Shown: in pieces, positions 13,035 through 64,000 of the stretch
How positions within the stretch are numbered: the first letter of the stretch is position 1
How the letters are laid out: every line of letters begins with the position of its first letter
Assembly (NCBI GenBank): GCA_022562055.1
Contig: JADFQA010000012.1
Span: 14,483 to 78,482, forward strand
From: Acidobacteriota bacterium
GTDB taxonomy: Bacteria > Actinomycetota > Acidimicrobiia > Spongiisociales > UBA5794
Direction of reading: 5' to 3'
Length of the DNA stretch: 64,000 nucleotides
Program-made: the position numbers and the translations under genes
Notes under the pieces: generated by a model
Databases searched by the model: none
The model's input: the letters and a program-made list of their open reading frames with translations, nothing else
Told to the model about the DNA's origin: nothing

Positions 13035-13210
13035 GACTGAGTCGCCGCGCAGGGTTCCCCTGCTTCACATCGTTGCGGTCTTTGTTCCCAAAATCACTTC
13101 CAGGATATTCACCGCACCGTTTCGACCGTGAAAAGCCGAGAGAGCATCCGCCGAATCGTTCGATAACTCTCTTCCTCGTCACCTCGCCTAGGCGAGGCCT
13201 GGCGCTTCGT
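13035..13210 (-). ncRNA. glmS ribozyme (GlcN6P-responsive self-cleaving riboswitch) in the glmM-glmS intergenic region
   Basis: The minus-strand transcript carries the core blocks AGCGCC...GUGACGAGGAAGAGAGUUAUCGAA...UUCGGCGGAUGC...CGGCU...GGGAACAAAG, in the same order as the B. subtilis glmS ribozyme. Confidence 0.75.
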
Positions 13211-13270
13211 TACAGCACCGACCAGTCGTTTGAATTGTCACAGCAGTATAGGACGGCAACCGATATGTGA

Positions 13271-35242: not shown

Positions 35243-36448
35243 CTAGGCACCCTTGCCGTCAGAGTCAGGGGCCCCGCTAGCGTCAGCAGCCTCGTCAGCG
35301 TCAGCGGCCCCGTCGGCAGCGGCATCCTCAGACGTGTCGCCTTCGGCAACTGCCTCTGGAGTAGCGCCGTCGTCGGATGAGGTGTCACTGTCAGACGCGT
35401 CATCGACGTCTACGGCCTCGGTCGTCGAACTCTCTGAAGAGTCTTGGGTGACGTCAATGGCATCTGTCTGAGACTCGGTCTTTGTCTCCACGTCGCTCGT
35501 GGACGTTTGCTCGCTCGAGACATCCGCGGCCACGTCGGTGGCCGTGGTGCCGTCGACAGCGCCGCGTGCATCGTCAAGCTCTTCCTTAACATCGGCGGCC
35601 GACACTGTGGGTGTGTCTTCGTGCTTTGGACGACGTTTACCGCCGCCGGCCTCAACAAGACGTTTGCCGCCGCCGGCCTCGATGATCTTGCGTGGGCCGG
35701 TAGGACCACCGCCTTTTGCGGCTGCCTCGGCACGAGACTTCGCCGGGCGACGGCGATTCGACGGACCACCTGCAGCGAGCCGAGCCTCGGCCGCAATCTT
35801 GTCTGCGCGCCCGAGCAGTGATGGTGAAACATCACCCTTGTACACCCACACCTTGATGCCGATCGTTCCGACGGTGGTGTGCGCGGTGGCGACGCCGTAG
35901 TCAATGTCGGCGCGCAGGGTGTGCAATGGCACACGACCTTCGAGGTACCACTCTCGACGACCCATGTCAGCGCCGCCGAGACGACCAGACGCCTGCACAC
36001 GGACACCCTCAGCACCTGCCTTGAGCGCGGTTGCGACAGTGCGCTTCATAGCTCGCCGGAAAGACACCCGACCCTCAAGCTGGTCAGCGACCGAACGGGC
36101 GAGCAGCGTCGCATCGAGCTCGGCGTTCTGGACCTCTATGACGTTGAACTTCACAATGAGACCGGTGAGTTTCTCAAGCCCGCGGCGCATCCGCTCGGCC
36201 TCAGAACCTGCGCGACCAATCACAACACCAGGTCGCCCCGTGTGGATATCGATCTGGACCTTCTTGTCACCGATTCGTTCGATGTCTATCCGCGAGATTG
36301 CACCGCGCGATAGTTCAGTCGTGAGATACGTGCGGATATCGGCGTCTTGGTTGACCTGGAACGCGTAGTCCTTTTCGGAGTACCAGCGTGACTTCCAGTC
36401 CGTGACGATGCCCAGACGGAGTCCGTACGGATGTATTTTCTGTCCCAC
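35243..36448 (-). CDS. rpsC: 30S ribosomal protein S3 with a roughly 150-170 aa acidic, S/T/A/D/E-rich C-terminal extension (GTG start overlapping the rplV stop)
   Basis: N-terminal [12 protein letters not shown]; KH and S3-C domains, then a low-complexity tail ...[25 protein letters not shown]...[19 protein letters not shown]. Confidence 0.9.
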
Positions 36449-36789
36449 TACGCCTCCTCTCTTTCGGATACAACGATGGTGATGTGACAGGTGCGCTTGC
36501 GAATCTTGGTTGCGCGGCCACGAGCACGTGGGCGCCAACGTTTCAGCGTCGGACCTTCGTCGGCGTATGCCTCAGAAATGAACAACTCATCTGCGTCGAG
36601 AGCATGGTTGTGCTCAGCGTTTGCGACGGCGGAATCGAGGACCTTCAGGATGGTGTCAGCCGCTCTGCGATTGGTAAACCTCAACACATCGCTGGCTTCG
36701 TCGACCGGAAGTTCGCGAACCAAATCGAGAACTCGACGGACCTTATACGGTGACTGACGGATGTACTTCGCCTGCGCTTTGACGTTCAT
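36448..36789 (-). CDS. rplV: 50S ribosomal protein L22
   Basis: Homology. Confidence 0.95.
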
Positions 36790-38910: not shown

Positions 38911-39541
38911 GTGCCTTCACCGCCTCGCGAATGATGACAAGGCCGCGTTTGTTGCCGGGCACTGCGCCTCTGACCATCAATAGGCCCCGATCAGCATCGA
39001 TCTTTGCAATCGTGAGGTTCATAGCTGTGCGTGTGTTACCACCCATGCGACCAGGCATACGCTTCCCCTTGTGGACACGGGCAGGTGTTGCACAGGCGCC
39101 GATCGACCCTGGTGCTCGGTGAACCCGATGTGCCCCATGGGAGGCGGGCATGCCCTTGAAGTTGTGGCGTTTCATCACCCCGGCAAATCCCTTGCCCTTG
39201 GTGACACCCGCAACGTCGATCTTCTGACCGACCTCGAACAGATCGGTGATCGATATCTCCTGACCGAGTGAGTACTGCGAAACGTCGTCGACACGAATTT
39301 CGACAATGTGCTTCGCCGGCGCAACACCCGACTTTGCGAAGTGGCCTGCTGTTGGGCGATTGACGTGACGCTCTGGCAACTCTTTGTATGCGATCTGGAT
39401 CGCCTCATACCCGTCGTTGTCCTGCGTTTTGATTTGTGTGACGTGAACGGGACCAGCCTTGATGATGGTCACCGGAATTACCCGGTTCTCATCATCGAAG
39501 ATCTGAGTCATGCCCAGCTTTTCGCCAAGAATCGCTTTCAC
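38903..39541 (-). CDS. rplC: 50S ribosomal protein L3
   Basis: Homology. Confidence 0.95.
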
Positions 39542-39849
39542 GTCTTGATCTCCACTTCAACCCCGGCGGGCAGATCGAGACGCATGAGAGCGTCCACTGT
39601 CTTTGGCGTCGGATCAAGAATGTCAATCAAACGCTTGTGGATACGTATCTCGAAGTGCTCGCGGCTCGTCTTATCGACATGCGGGCCACGGATGACGCAG
39701 TACCGGTGGATACGGGTCGGCAACGGAATCGGGCCCTTGATCTTCGCTTGGGTACGAATCACCGTTTCTGCAATTTTGCGCGCCGACTCATCAACCACTG
39801 AGTGGTCGTAGGCCTTGAGTCTGATCCGGATCCTGTGTTCGTTAGCCAT
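39538..39849 (-). CDS. rpsJ: 30S ribosomal protein S10
   Basis: Homology; 20 nt downstream of tuf. Confidence 0.96.
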
Positions 39850-39869
39850 GGTTCAGTAACTCCCAGTCC

Positions 39870-41060
39870 CTACTTGATGATTTTGGTGACTCGGCCGGCA
39901 CCAACAGTCCGCCCACCCTCACGAATAGCGAACCGCAACCCCTCATCCATAGCAATCGGATTAATCAACTCAACCGTCATCTCAGTGTTATCACCAGGCA
40001 TCACCATCTCCGTACCCTCAGGCAACGACACCGAACCAGTCACATCCGTCGTCCGAAAATAAAACTGCGGACGATACCCATCAAAAAACGGGTTCTGACG
40101 CCCACCCTCATTACGCGTCAACACATACACCTGAGCCTCAAACAACGTATGAGGAGTAATCGAACCCGGCGCCGCAATCACCTGACCACGCTCCACATCC
40201 TCCTTACCCGTCCCCCGCAACAACAACCCAACATTGTCACCAGCATGAGCCTCATCCAACAACTTACGAAACATCTCCACCCCAGTAACCGTCGTCTTCT
40301 GCAACGCCCGAATACCAACAATGTCAACCTCAGACGCAATCTTCAACCATCACTGCTCAACCCGCCCAGTCACCACAGTCCCCCGCCCAGTAATCGAAAA
40401 CACATCCTCAATCGGCATCAAAAACGGCTTATCCATATCCCGCTCAGGCAACAAAATGTACTCATCAACAGCCGCCATCAACTCCAAAACCTGAGCCGAA
40501 GCACCCTCATCACCCTCCAACGCCAACAACGCCGAACCACGAATCACCGGAACCTCATCACCCGGGAACTCATACTCCGACAACAACTCCCGAACCTCCA
40601 ACTCAACAAGATCCAACAACTCCTCATCATCCACCATGTCAACCTTATTCAAAAAGACAACAATCCGAGGAACCCCAACCTGCAACGCCAACAACACATG
40701 CTCACGCGTCTGCGGCATCGGACCATCAGCAGCCGACACCACCAAAATCGCACCATCAATCTGCGCAGCACCCGTAATCATATTCTTCACATAATCAGCA
40801 TGACCCGGCATATCAACATGCGCATAATGACGATTCACCGTCTCATACTCCACATGAGAAATCGCAATCGTAATACCACGCTCACGCTCCTCAGGAGCAT
40901 TATCAATCTCATCAAAAGCAGTGAACTGCGTCACCCCACCAACAGTCTCAGCCAACACCCGCGTAATCGCAGCAGTCAACGTCGTCTTCCCATGATCAAT
41001 ATGACCCATCGTCCCAACATTCACATGCGGCTTCACCCGCTCAAACTTCTCCTTAGCCAT
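39870..41060 (-). pseudogene. tuf: Elongation factor Tu, copy 1 (str operon position), interrupted by an in-frame TGA at 40350-40352; highly atypical codon usage
   Basis: The ORF track splits EF-Tu into 40350..41060 and 39870..40346. Copy 2 reads ...[15 protein letters not shown] where copy 1 reads ...[14 protein letters not shown]. Third codon positions are almost exclusively G or T. Confidence 0.85.
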
Positions 41061-41074
41061 AACGGCGACTCCTT

Positions 41075-43177
41075 CTATTCGCCACGAACCTTGGCAACAA
41101 TTTCTTGCGCCACGGTGCTCGGGACTTCTTGGTACGAATGAAACTGCATGCTGTAGCTGGCGCGACCTTTGGTTCGAGAACGAAGATCGCTCACGTAGCC
41201 AAACATCTCTGCCAGCGGCGTCAATGCATTGATGATTTTGATGGGTCCACGGGAATCCATGGACTCAACCTTTCCACGACGAGCGGAGATATCACCGATG
41301 ACATCTCCCAAGTGCTCTTCTGGTGTGACTACCTCGACCTCCATTATGGGTTCGAGAAGTTTTATGCCCGCCCGCTCGGCAGCCGCTTTGAGGGCCATTG
41401 AACCGGCGATTCGGAACGCCATCTCGTTCGAGTCCACGTTATGGCTCGAGCCGTCGATCAGCGTTGCCTTTAGGTCGACAAGCGGGAATCCCGCGAGAAC
41501 ACCGGCTTCGAGAACGTCGCGCATTCCTTTTTCTGCAGCGGGGATAAACTCGCGTGGAACGGACCCACCCTTGATTTTGTCGATGAATTCGAATCCTGAC
41601 CCCGGCGCACCTGGTTCAAGGTTGATAACGACGTGGCCGTACATACCGGAGCCACCGGTCTGCTTCTTCAGCTTGCCGTCAATCTTGGTAACTGCCCTTT
41701 TGATCGTCTCGCGATACGCGACCTGAGGCCGACCGACATCAGCCTCGACCTTGAACTCGCGTCGCAAACGGTCGACAAGGATATCGAGGTGCAGTTCGCC
41801 CATGCCTGCAATGATCGTCTGACCTGTCTCCTCGTCGGTGTGGACCACAAACGTCGGGTCTTCTTCGGCAAGACGCATGAGGCCTTCGCCGAGTTTGTCC
41901 TGAGCGGCCTTGTTCTTCGGCTCAATCGCCACCGAAATCACAGGATCGGGGAAGGTCATCGACTCGAGTTGGATCGGTGCGTCCTGAGCGGACAGGGTGT
42001 GCCCGGTCTTCGTTGCTTTCAACCCAACCGCCGCCACAATGTCACCGGTGCGAACCTCGTCAATATCCTCTTGCGTGTTTGCATGCATGCGCAGCAAACG
42101 TCCGAACCGCTCGCGCTTTCCGGTGGTCGCGTTCACGACGGTGTCGCCCCTCTTGGCCCACCCCGAGTACACGCGGAAGTAGGTGAGTTTCCCAACATAG
42201 GGATCGGACATGATCTTGAATGCCAACGCCGAGAATGGCTCGTCATCGCTCGGCTTGCGCTCGAGTATCTCGTCCTCTTTTCCTGGTCTGAAACCGGTCA
42301 TCGGGGGAACATCGAGCGGGCTTGGAAGATACATCACCACGCCGTCGAGGAGACCCTGGACGCCCTTGTTTTTGAGGGCAGATCCGAGAAGTACCGGTAC
42401 GAAATCGTGGTTGATGGTGCCTTTACGAATGGCCGCACGCAGCTCATCGGGGGTGATTTCCTCGTCAGAGAGATATTTCTCAAGGAGGTCGGCGTCCTCT
42501 GCCGCAACAATGTCGAGCAGCTTTGCGCGATACTCATCGGCCTGCTCCTGGAGCTCGGCCGGGATGTCTACAACGTCCCACTCTTTGCCGTCGTCGGTTT
42601 TGCCGTCGTCGGTGTCCCGATACACGATTGCTTTCATATCGACGAGGTCGATGGCGCCGGAAAAGTCACCCTCAACTCCCACCGGAATCTGAACGGCGAC
42701 TGGGTTACCACCGAGGCGATCGACAATCGAATCGATAGCGGCAAAGTAGTCTGCGCCGATCCGATCCATCTTGTTGATGAAGCAGATGCGGGGGACCCCG
42801 TACTTGTCGGCTTGACGCCATACAGTCTCTGACTGCGGCTCAACACCTGAGACCGCATCGAAAACCGCAACCGCGCCATCGAGAACACGAAGCGACCGCT
42901 CGACCTCGACCGTGAAATCGACGTGCCCAGGCGTATCAATAATGTTGATGGTGTGATCATCCCAAAGGCACGTGGTGGCGGCAGACGTAATAGTGATGCC
43001 GCGTTCCTGCTCCTGCTCCATCCAGTCCATGACAGCAGACCCCTCGTGGACCTCACCGATCTTGTACGTGCGACCGGTGTAGTAGAGGATCCGCTCTGTC
43101 ACTGTCGTCTTACCGGCATCGATGTGAGCCATGATGCCGATATTGCGAACCGTTTCGAGTTTCATACTGCGTGCCAT
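41075..43177 (-). CDS. fusA: Elongation factor G
   Basis: [10 protein letters not shown]-domain; 700 aa. Confidence 0.97.
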
Positions 43178-61487: not shown

Positions 61488-62750
61488 CGTTCTTGCGTCC
61501 AATAGTGCAGGATCCTGCGGTGGTCTCAAGTGGTGTGCGCGACGGGGTGACCTTTTTGAGGTGATTTTATGTCTCGTCCAAAGACCCCTTGGCGGGTAGC
61601 GCGGGTAGCGCTGTTTGAGTTGGCGAGGGGGGCGTCCATTGATGATGCTGCAACGGTGGCGGGGGTGTCTGCGCGTATGGTTGACCGGTTTGTCAACGAG
61701 TATGGGCGGATGACTATACGTGAAACAAAACCACGAGCTAACGCACTCACTTTCGGGGAACGCGAAGAGATATGGATGGGTATCCAACGTGGGGAGTCAA
61801 ACACTGTGCTGGCGCAACGGTTGGGAAGGTCCCGTTCAACAATCTGGCGGGAGATCACTAACAATGGTGGCCGTGAAGGCTATCGCATGTCCCGCGCCCA
61901 GGATCGTGCCCATCGACAGGGACGGCGCCAGCGTCCAACGTGGGTTGAGACTAGGCCGTGGCTGTGGGATGTCGTGGTTGGGTTGTTGCTTTACGAGAAG
62001 TGGTCACCCGAGCAGATCGCTCACCGGCTTCGCATAGAGCACCCCAATGATTCATCATGGTGGGTGTCACACGAAACGATTTATCAAGCTATCTACGTCC
62101 AAGCCAGAGGCGGGTTACGTGAAGAACTCATGGCCTGTCTGCGTAGCGGGCGCACGGCACGTAAACCGCAGCGTCGTGGAGTGACCACTGGGGGCAGGAT
62201 TACTTCAAAGGTGATGATCTCTCAACGACCTAGCGAGGTTGCTGATCGGGCTGTGCCCGGGCACTGGGAAGGAGACCTCATAGTTGGCAAAGGAAACAAA
62301 AGTTACGTTGCGACACTGGTGGAACGCACCACCCGGTTAGGGATACTCATCAAAATTGACTCCAAGGACGCCGGGCATGTTGCTCAACGCCTGAGTGAAC
62401 ATGTTCAGACACTCCCTACCCAGCTCTTCAAGACCCTCACCTGGGACCAGGGAACCGAACTTGCTGACCATGCCGTGTTCACTATCCGGACCGGGGTCCC
62501 TGTGTTCTTTTGTGACCCTCGTTCGCCGTGGCAACGCGGCTCTAACGAGAATTTCAACGGCCTCGTGAGGCAATTCCTCCCCAAAGGAACCGACCTCTCC
62601 CAACACTCCCAAGCCGACCTTGATGAATACGCCCGACTACTCAACAACCGACCACGTAAAACGCTTAACTGGGACAAACCAGCAGAGCAATACAACCAAC
62701 TCGTCGCGGCCACAGCTTGAAACCACCTGCACTATTGGACGCAAGAACGG
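61488..62750 (+). mobile_element. IS30-family insertion sequence with perfect 25-bp terminal inverted repeats
   Basis: IRL ccgttcttgcgtccaatagtgcagg (61488-61512) = revcomp of IRR (62726-62750); single transposase ORF inside. Confidence 0.9.
61569..62720 (+). CDS. IS30-family transposase (DDE)
   Basis: HTH N-terminus; HWEGD...integrase core; typical IS30 length (383 aa). Confidence 0.9.
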   Translation: MSRPKTPWRVARVALFELARGASIDDAATVAGVSARMVDRFVNEYGRMTIRETKPRANALTFGEREEIWMGIQRGESNTVLAQRLGRSRSTIWREITNNGGREGYRMSRAQDRAHRQGRRQRPTWVETRPWLWDVVVGLLLYEKWSPEQIAHRLRIEHPNDSSWWVSHETIYQAIYVQARGGLREELMACLRSGRTARKPQRRGVTTGGRITSKVMISQRPSEVADRAVPGHWEGDLIVGKGNKSYVATLVERTTRLGILIKIDSKDAGHVAQRLSEHVQTLPTQLFKTLTWDQGTELADHAVFTIRTGVPVFFCDPRSPWQRGSNENFNGLVRQFLPKGTDLSQHSQADLDEYARLLNNRPRKTLNWDKPAEQYNQLVAATA

Positions 62751-62758
62751 GGGCTTTG

Positions 62759-62920
62759 CTAGCGGGTCTCCTTGTGCATCACATGTTCGCGACACCACTT
62801 GCAGAACTTCTTGAGCTCAATACGCTCACGCGTGTTGGTCTTGTTCTTCGTTGTCACGTAGTTACGACGCTTGCATTTCTCGCAAGCCAAAGTAATCGGC
62901 GGTCTCTTGGCGGAGGCCAT
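62759..62920 (-). CDS. rpmG: 50S ribosomal protein L33 (53 aa; absent from the ORF track because under 60 aa)
   Basis: Manual translation: [53 protein letters not shown]; GAGAGGAA RBS. Confidence 0.85.
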
Positions 62921-63013
62921 TGTCATTTCCTCTCAGTGGTAGCGCGAGCCCGGAGATTCCGGGACAGCGTCACCCTCAGTCTTCTTCCAGAACGTGTCTG
63001 AAGGTTGTCGTCC

Positions 63014-64000
63014 CTACTTGATGATTTTGGTGACTCGGCCGGCACCAACAGTCCGCCCACCCTCACGAATAGCGAACCGCAACCCCTCATCCATAGCAAT
63101 CGGATTAATCAACTCAACCGTCATCTCAGTGTTATCACCAGGCATCACCATCTCCGTACCCTCAGGCAACGACACCGAACCAGTCACATCCGTCGTCCGA
63201 AAATAAAACTGCGGACGATACCCATCAAAAAACGGGTTCTGACGCCCACCCTCATTACGCGTCAACACATACACCTGAGCCTCAAACAACGTATGAGGAG
63301 TAATCGAACCCGGCGCCGCAATCACCTGACCACGCTCCACATCCTCCTTACCCGTCCCCCGCAACAACAACCCAACATTGTCACCAGCATGAGCCTCATC
63401 CAACAACTTACGAAACATCTCCACCCCAGTAACCGTCGTCTTCTGCAACGCCCGAATACCAACAATGTCAACCTCAGACCCAATCTTCAACAACCCCTGC
63501 TCAACCCGCCCAGTCACCACAGTCCCCCGCCCAGTAATCGAAAACACATCCTCAATCGGCATCAAAAACGGCTTATCCATATCCCGCTCAGGCAACAAAA
63601 TATATTCATCAACAGCCGCCATCAACTCCAAAACCTGAGCCGAAGCACCCTCATCACCCTCCAACGCCAACAACGCCGAACCACGAATCACCGGAACCTC
63701 ATCACCCGGGAACTCATACTCCGACAACAACTCCCGAACCTCCAACTCAACAAGATCCAACAACTCCTCATCATCCACCATGTCAACCTTATTCAAAAAG
63801 ACAACAATCCGAGGAACCCCAACCTGCAACGCCAACAACACATGCTCACGCGTCTGCGGCATCGGACCATCAGCAGCCGACACCACCAAAATCGCACCAT
63901 CAATCTGCGCAGCACCCGTAATCATATTCTTCACATAATCAGCATGACCCGGCATATCAACATGCGCATAATGACGATTCACCGTCTCATACTCCACATG
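63014..64000 (-). CDS. tuf: Elongation factor Tu, copy 2 (intact over the visible part; 5' end beyond the window); nearly identical at DNA level to copy 1 and with the same atypical codon usage
   Basis: 63014..63997 ORF; DNA identical to 39870..40333 and onward apart from the 4-nt cluster and 2 synonymous sites. Confidence 0.9.

Follow-up and report, generated by a model that had tools for sequence, protein, structure and literature searches.

An in-frame stop codon in one of two tuf genes is most likely an assembly artefact, within a gene pair that falls under the published definition of GRINS

In the window (the whole 64,000-nt stretch of DNA analysed here) the str-operon copy of tuf is interrupted by an in-frame TGA. 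The most likely cause of this lesion is an error of assembly; at most, it represents a rare and recent mutation. For the stop codon itself, we regard an assembly or consensus error as the most likely source, if by no means a secure one, and not a biological property of tuf. The artefact is ranked first because the lesion is private to this assembly, has a non-biological look and lies at a site where assemblers fail. The two tuf copies fall under the published operational definition of gene-conversion-linked repeats of intense nucleotide skew (GRINS), and this is more interesting than the stop codon.

Results

On the minus strand, tuf copy 1 reads GAG CAG TGA TGG TTG AAG ATT GCG TCT, and copy 2 reads GAG CAG GGG TTG TTG AAG ATT GGG TCT at the equivalent site (Table 1). 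The four-substitution cluster that a sequence-only reading had reported here is present as described; it spans 17 nt, three of its four changes are indeed transversions, and all four are non-synonymous. The gene is interrupted at codon 237 as claimed, but comprises 396 codons and not about 397. Apart from codons 237-242, copy 1 translates into an ordinary EF-Tu. With the three altered codons repaired, its product is 100% identical to protein P0001 (NCBI MCH7668744.1), which comprises the Pfam domains GTP_EFTU (PF00009), D2 (PF03144) and D3 (PF03143). A homologue search returned at least 8000 matches at E<=1e-100, as expected of an EF-Tu gene. The broken gene is predicted to yield products of 236 aa and 158 aa, and exact protein look-up returned no record for either.

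The affected residues are strongly conserved. Gly237 does not vary among 120 full-length homologues (GGN at the codon in 120/120); position 238 is occupied by L, V, I, T, M, K, H or Q and never by W, and position 242 by G (111) or N (9) and never by A. The mutant residues W238 and A242 (WLKIA) were absent among the homologues listed as well, a weak negative since that list consists mostly of fragments and lacks P0001 itself. An exact-pattern scan of genome and metagenome contig collections gave 0 matches for either allele of the site and says nothing further on the lesion.

Table 1. Features of the two tuf loci, in window coordinates
Feature	Position	Strand	Remarks
rpsJ (S10)	39538..39849	-	20 nt downstream of tuf copy 1
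Repeat unit, copy 1, 1211 nt	39866..41076	-	16 nt before ATG to 4 nt past stop; self-BLAST and matches to L003/L004
tuf copy 1 (EF-Tu, 396 codons)	39870..41060	-	str-operon position, broken at codon 237; ORF list and translation
Last 9 sense codons of tuf	39873..39899	-	normal C/A-ending usage, unlike the rest of the gene
G-run-rich, G4-like stretch, gene nt 694-726	40335..40367	-	loops of 1, 7 and 12 nt; regex scan
Cluster of four substitutions (40352, 40350, 40348, 40336)	40336..40352	-	G237stop, L238W, G242A
In-frame TGA in place of Gly237 (GGG)	40350..40352	-	sequence and translation
Substitution 1, gene nt 709	40352		G>T
Substitution 2, gene nt 711	40350		G>A
Substitution 3, gene nt 713	40348		T>G
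Substitution 4, gene nt 725	40336		G>C
fusA (EF-G)	41075..43177	-	directly upstream of tuf copy 1, 14-nt gap; Pfam EF-G domains
rpmG (L33)	62759..62920	-	downstream of tuf copy 2; Pfam Ribosomal_L33, mapped from L002 3206-3367
tuf copy 2, rpmG-linked	repeat unit 63010..64000; gene 64000..63014	-	cut by window end at gene nt 205
Copy-2-specific synonymous differences (gene nt 600 G>A, 603 C>T)	63602..63605	-	window 63605 and 63602

As had been stated, the interrupted copy is the one in the str operon, after fusA and 20 nt before rpsJ. Neither a promoter-like nor a terminator-like site was found between tuf copy 1 and rpsJ. The statement that the rpmG-linked copy is intact holds over the 987 coding nt visible before the window end cuts the gene, and a whole intact copy is present in the corresponding locus of another assembly (L002, see below). 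Between the two copies lie rpoB, rpoC, rplKAJL, nusG, secE, rpsL, rpsG and fusA. The record of P0001, whose gene lies on an 80,266-nt contig, is labelled 'MAG: Acidobacteria bacterium'; since the next-nearest EF-Tu sequences (85-88% identity) stem mostly from Acidimicrobiia MAGs, this label is probably wrong at the phylum level.

Across the 987 nt that they share, the two copies differ at six positions (gene nt 600, 603, 709, 711, 713 and 725). The first two, about 106 nt upstream of the cluster, are synonymous, and the flanking several hundred nucleotides are thus not fully identical between the copies, contrary to what had been claimed. This pair was found again in a contig of a different sample (L005), which is why we take it for a real population variant.

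We then compared the window with other assemblies. ENA ERZ23499143:scaffold_13 (79,675 nt, sample SAMN16252661), assembled independently from the same population, encodes P0001 twice. Both of its tuf genes are intact (396 aa) and laid out as in the window, one as fusA-tuf-rpsJ (L001) and the other as M48 peptidase-tuf-rpmG-IS30 (L002); identity of the window to these loci is 99.94-99.95%, without indels. Outside the cluster, 13 differences were counted in 32,178 nt, 10 of them synonymous and 3 conservative (N>K, S>A, T>S), and by this pattern they appear to be real strain polymorphism under purifying selection. The rplF S176A protein of the window was found in two other samples; a search via this rplF variant returned only short contigs of other samples. 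At the background rate given by these 13 differences in 32,178 nt between the window and the independent assembly, about 3e-6 windows of 17 nt with at least four differences are expected by chance. The four changes must hence share an origin, as one event or one artefact, and independent events are ruled out.

The intact GGG TTG..GGG was present in L001, L002, L003 (three samples), L004, L005, L011 and L012. None of these carries the four-change cluster, which was seen in window copy 1 only, and the lesion is thus not reproduced in independent assemblies or strains. In addition, copy 1 matches the functional allele of L001 to L003 at every position outside the cluster, without any further non-synonymous change or indel, and no added relaxation of constraint was found in it. 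In the resolved chromosomes of two related genomes, the tuf paralogues show 100% identity throughout a repeat of as much as 1214 nt, whose flanks are unrelated; overall, tuf identity is 79-94% between lineages versus 99.4-100% within a genome.

The 1211-nt unit that contains tuf is the sole repeat in the window. Its two copies are direct repeats, 23 kb apart and 99.4% identical over the 991 nt visible. Other assemblies mishandle this same repeat: L003, L004 and L006 are collapsed contigs of 1211-1214 nt that comprise nothing but the repeat, L005 and L012 link the fusA flank to the rpmG flank (fusA-tuf-rpmG), and L011 links the M48 flank to rpsJ-rplC (M48-tuf-rpsJ). Since an M48-tuf-rpsJ junction would remove rpoBC and other essential genes, we interpret the flank-swapped contigs as assembler chimeras. 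Many GTDB contigs terminate inside tuf, and the protein collection holds chimeric EF-Tu, i.e. fragments with duplicated segments.

The ENA label ZHOU22-1_SAMN1625266x, the sole link between the two, makes PMC8938466 the likely source study of the window, with PRJNA635214 as the probable BioProject. In that study, reads of several sediment layers were merged per site, libraries of 350- or 550-bp insert were sequenced 2x300 or 2x150, and assembly was performed with SPAdes 3.13 in isolate mode (--careful, k 21 to 127). If the window stems from this study, as the label suggests, the repeat of 1211 nt exceeds both its reads and its inserts of 350 or 550 bp.

The cluster coincides with a G-run-rich stretch (Table 1). 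Every G4-like motif found in the gene by regex scan lies in nt 673-726, and three of the four substitutions break up the final two G-runs in the nt 694-726 stretch. Such motifs increase Illumina mismatch errors (PMC10519405), and G-run and non-B motifs increase real substitution rates (PMC7897504). Since the G4 context raises sequencing errors and real substitutions alike, it was rejected as a discriminator. Two candidate sources of the four bases were rejected as well. A candidate donor, by ectopic conversion or through a chimeric join, was the 13-mer GAGCAGTGATGGT, which recurs at 35813-35825 (+). This match does not extend; about 0.03 such matches are expected by chance, and it is probably a coincidence. 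A template switch at a quasi-palindrome or hairpin was discarded, the mutant and wild-type segments folding no better than shuffled sequence.

Both tuf copies show a pronounced codon skew, with 53% G, 43% T, 4% C and 1% A at third positions. For fusA and seven ribosomal protein genes, C makes up 32-46% of third positions, and among the other ORFs of 100 codons or more in the window, none has a G+T fraction above 0.70 there. Leu is encoded by TTG in 33 of 34 cases, and Asp, His, Ile, Asn, Tyr and Phe by T-ending codons. The skew stops short of the 3' end of the gene (Table 1). The G/T-ended tuf genes of other lineages share this tail, and in all of them the last 9-14 codons are back to normal usage.

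The G/T-ended trait is common to L005 and L006 (a hydrothermal-vent metagenome contig, 91% nucleotide identity) and absent in relatives at 88% protein identity. Scanning GTDB with a G/T-degenerate pattern over the conserved GH[IV]... EF-Tu motif, we found such tuf genes in at least 120 species, including Acidimicrobiia, Trueperaceae, Gemmatimonadales and Candidatus Spongiisociaceae. Many of these genes have a gene-wide third-position G+T of 0.90-0.99 and a GC content about 5-12 points under that of their flanks. Complete genomes with such a tuf include OZ242375.1, OZ246890.1 and OZ253564.1. Their EF-Tu is 71-83% identical to that of the window and their lengths are lineage-specific, and horizontal transfer of one allele was rejected on these grounds; the G/T-ended tuf genes are native. 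When two G/T-ended lineages are compared, G<>T exchanges at third positions make up 47 of about 70 synonymous differences, and the G/T-ended state is thus maintained and not a relic; a one-off hypermutation was rejected on the same count. Translational selection for G/T codons was likewise dismissed, given the normal usage of fusA and the ribosomal protein genes of the same operons. Minimal mRNA structure proved insufficient as an explanation (-407 kcal/mol for the real gene, -455 for a host-typical version, -270 to -284 for A/C- or A/T-ended ones). Leakage of the skew into amino-acid composition was set aside, being confounded by genome GC content.

The main text of the 2021 paper on GRINS (PMC8256042) defines them by duplicates of >500 bp with >80% DNA identity and by mean absolute GC and TA skews of >0.15, computed in windows of 150 nt with a 30-nt step. 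The tuf repeat, with its 1211 nt and 99.4% identity over the 991 nt visible, is such a duplicate. GC skew amounts to 0.459 and 0.481 and TA skew to 0.297 and 0.325 in the two tuf copies, and the skews of the remainder of the window are 0.080 and 0.124. Both skews are positive on the coding strand and concentrated at third positions. The identity values within genomes and between lineages given above are those of concerted evolution and point to gene conversion. That is, the tuf pair falls within the published operational definition of GRINS.

Discussion

The assembly or consensus error that the sequence-only reading had listed among its options, without choosing one, is the best supported of these. 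The lesion is confined to this assembly, the repeat is demonstrably mishandled elsewhere, and the cluster is unlike the surrounding polymorphism: the background consists of 10 synonymous and 3 conservative changes, whereas the cluster is non-synonymous in 4/4 positions and hits an unvarying Gly. All this agrees with the errors that repeats induce in short-read de Bruijn assembly. The lesion lies within a 1211-nt repeat longer than the library inserts, this very repeat was collapsed (L003, L004, L006) or flank-swapped (L005, L011, L012), the four changes fit within a single k-mer, and the variant is missing elsewhere. It differs from the usual case in one respect, as the mismatches of such errors mostly come from the other copy and the bases found here do not.

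As to the mechanism, the two tuf genes form a near-exact direct repeat beyond the reach of short-read inserts, and both copies would share a single path in the assembly graph. A rare branch, which would stem either from a library molecule that was damaged or mis-copied or from a variant at very low frequency, may have been threaded into one copy during repeat resolution. Falling within less than one k-mer, the four changes would behave as a single bubble and travel together. We infer this route of the branch into the contig.

Three points hold our confidence in an artefact down. In SPAdes, a branch carrying four errors is normally kept through error correction and bulge removal only if several reads support it, and this need favours real molecules that carry the variant. 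The two copies in scaffold_13 may be identical only through one collapsed edge that was walked twice; scaffold_13 shows the majority allele and not copy 1 specifically. Finally, a cell with two tuf genes could dispense with one.

The last point leads to the strongest contender, which we consider somewhat less probable than an artefact but well worth weighing: a real, very recent multi-nucleotide mutation that renders the str-operon tuf null in a minority strain or sub-population of the co-assembly. Such a cell would live on the rpmG-linked copy. The 236-aa product would be a G domain without domains 2 and 3, unable to carry aminoacyl-tRNA. This is plausible because model bacteria with two tuf copies can do without one of them, and a second, intact copy is present here. 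Moreover, the deposited sequence does have the lesion, and the window represents a distinct strain consensus whose other private SNPs were confirmed in other samples. A mutational origin would fit the G-run context, which increases real substitution rates (PMC7897504), and a gene that is a conversion-prone GRINS. The case resembles multi-nucleotide mutation at G-run or non-B DNA in that several substitutions fall within 17 nt, three of them at G-runs; it differs in that four changes per event are unusual. In addition, 0/4 substitutions are of the C>T or A>G type expected from the process shaping the gene, the lesion is missing from all other assemblies of the population, and signs of relaxed constraint are otherwise absent from copy 1.

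A null allele must also be reconciled with the downstream genes. With no promoter-like rpsJ site past the stop, a nonsense codon risks polarity on an essential operon. Rho prefers C-rich RNA. The 480-nt tail past the stop has 15% C and 37% G, and 78-nt windows with more C than G number 0 of 1113 in tuf (versus 600 of 2025 in fusA and 354 of 869 in rpsJ-rplC). Since the tail is C-poor and lacks such windows, Rho-dependent polarity on the S10 operon might be weak. Given the 100% identical paralogues of the relatives, conversion would soon erase the lesion, and any lesion that survives must be very recent.

Recombination-associated synthesis can be error-prone. A more specific version of the mutational reading, which we regard as improbable and put forward tentatively, is that the cluster arose in a single event, by error-prone synthesis during tuf-to-tuf conversion at the G-run/G4-like site. 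If so, it would be a fresh footprint of the mutagenic process that makes and maintains GRINS-type skew in tuf, tolerated for now as the other copy is intact and the C-poor tail gives Rho no loading site.

The remaining explanations carry far less weight. A change made to the finished assembly, whether through faulty editing or processing or through intentional modification of the record or the window, is a very unlikely source of the lesion: the changes do look non-biological, but the window otherwise acts as a genuine alternative assembly with private SNPs that recur in other samples, and no positive sign of tampering was seen.

A stable pseudogene that has become fixed in the species and persists despite gene conversion is less probable still and is contradicted by the data; the sequence-only reading had listed a pseudogenisation maintained in this way among its options. 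The stop in this window, a genuine disruption of the sequence at codon 237, is all that speaks for it. All other assemblies are intact, including the same locus in L001, copy 1 otherwise equals the functional allele, and concerted evolution is strong in the relatives, whose paralogues are 100% identical. Moreover, a fixed lesion would place the TGA branch in about half of the collapsed-repeat contigs, and it was observed in 0/7. The comparison with related genomes that had been called for thus found the lesion in neither the same nor related strains.

Programmed recoding (UGA as Gly under code 25, as Trp under code 4, as selenocysteine, or by readthrough) is rejected, with the in-frame position of the TGA in its favour and against it that TGA terminates 15/42 called genes (homologous loci), that the only candidate tRNA in the 64,000-nt window is a lone tRNA-Trp with anticodon CCA (reading UGG) and no tRNA-Sec was seen there, that folding (no better than shuffled sequence) and Rfam revealed no stable hairpin downstream and no SECIS or other RNA element at the site, that 120/120 relatives have GGN at this codon, and that L238W and G242A would be left unexplained; the doubt already voiced about TGA as Gly was well placed.

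On balance, the stop codon has little biological weight. It is neither conserved nor recoded and would at most be a transient null allele of a redundant gene. It does illustrate that duplicated tuf is a systematic weak point of short-read metagenome assemblies, giving rise to collapse, flank-swapped joins and chimeric proteins, and tuf 'pseudogenes' from such data are untrustworthy without flank-anchored reads.

Duplication of tuf with concerted evolution driven by gene conversion is classical in Salmonella and E. coli (tufA/tufB). As there, one of the two copies follows fusA in the str operon and one lies elsewhere, the copies are far more similar to each other (99.4% here, 100% in relatives) than those of different lineages (79-94%), and either is presumably dispensable singly. 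The present pair differs in that its copies are direct repeats 23 kb apart that flank rpoBC, in that the second copy is linked to rpmG and not to tRNA genes, and in a coding strand that is nearly devoid of C and A at synonymous sites.

With the GRINS described in the main text of PMC8256042, the tuf pair shares the association with gene conversion and the preservation of a functional protein. The GRINS presented there lie in PKS genes, transposases and recombination genes, and this main text makes no mention of tuf or EF-Tu. Later papers that cite it have PKS or NRPS genes as their subject, and our literature search on tuf codon skew returned nothing specific apart from GRINS. In tuf, by contrast, a single housekeeping gene is skewed along its whole length up to a point 9-14 codons short of the end, and the pattern recurs by convergence in several phyla. 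With GRINS in tuf, the phenomenon would reach beyond PKS genes and transposases into a housekeeping gene that is universal, essential and highly expressed. The convergent cases across phyla can be aligned, form a graded series and have a common sharp 3' boundary, which makes them a good system for studying how GRINS originate.

Codon usage of the tuf pair

Third codon positions of both copies of the EF-Tu gene tuf comprised 53% G, 43% T, 4% C and 1% A; the copies had a GC skew of 0.46 and a TA skew of 0.30. Codon usage is normal in fusA and in the ribosomal protein genes next to them. The tuf pair falls within the published criteria for GRINS (gene-conversion-linked repeats of intense nucleotide skew, PMC8256042), and tuf is not mentioned in that paper's text.

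Among GTDB representative genomes, tuf genes of this G/T-only type were found in at least 120 species of several phyla (loci L013-L132). The matches listed include Acidimicrobiia, Trueperaceae, Gemmatimonadales, Ca. Spongiisociaceae and others (for example L015/L025, L037, L045, L071, L082, L087, L105 and L109); among them, third-position G+T reached 0.99 and the GC content of the genes was 5-12 points below that of their flanks. Where two copies were resolved, they were 100% identical. G/T-only tuf genes look native to their hosts and convergent across lineages.

In all lineages examined, the G/T-only regime ended 9-14 codons ahead of the stop codon, and the remaining 3' tail used normal C/A-ending codons (the window, L015, L037, L071, L087 and others). 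This sharp boundary argues against simple transcription-linked mutation.

An open frame of 330 codons runs antisense to tuf. Its product is of low complexity, and we rejected it as a gene: the antisense strand holds few T or G and therefore few stop codons, making the frame a by-product of the skew.

Features of the window and of contigs from related samples
Feature	Sequence	Positions	Strand	Remarks
tuf copy 1	window	39866-41076	minus	third-position C/A nearly absent
tuf copy 2	window	63010-64000	minus	third-position C/A nearly absent
3' tail of tuf copy 1	window	39873-39899	minus	normal usage
Antisense frame	window	40149-41141	plus	rejected as gene
rpsC (ribosomal protein S3)	window	35243-36538	minus	~400 aa
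GAGCAGTGATGGT match	window	35813-35825	plus	antisense to rpsC
glmS ribozyme/riboswitch	window	13062-13217	minus	Rfam RF00234, 96.8 bits
IS30-family transposase	window	61569-62720	plus	HTH_38 + rve
tuf repeat, swapped flanks	L005	1-2964		fusA-tuf-rpmG
tuf repeat, swapped flanks	L012	1-2235		fusA-tuf-rpmG
tuf repeat, swapped flanks	L011	1-3573		M48-tuf-rpsJ

Assembly and taxonomic assignment

The three contigs with swapped flanks are assembler chimeras, because an M48-tuf-rpsJ junction would remove rpoBC and other essential genes. In the protein collection, the EF-Tu fragments P0121, P0122, P0123 and P0127 contain internal segments that are duplicated or spliced from different organisms; these are chimeric metagenome assemblies inside tuf.

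At NCBI, the source MAG, whose intact EF-Tu is MCH7668744.1, carries the label 'Acidobacteria bacterium'. This label is probably wrong, as the protein has its nearest relatives in Acidimicrobiia (Actinomycetota) MAGs.

Other elements

The 13-mer GAGCAGTGATGGT of the mutant tuf segment recurs on the strand opposite rpsC, but the match extends no further than 13 nt and is probably a coincidence. The IS30-family transposase lies directly downstream of rpmG, separating the tuf-rpmG unit from the secE-nusG cluster, and is likewise carried by an independent assembly of the same population (ERZ23499143 scaffold_13). S3 bears a long C-terminal extension, Ala/Gly/Lys-rich and then strongly acidic, and L4 has an acidic tail too.
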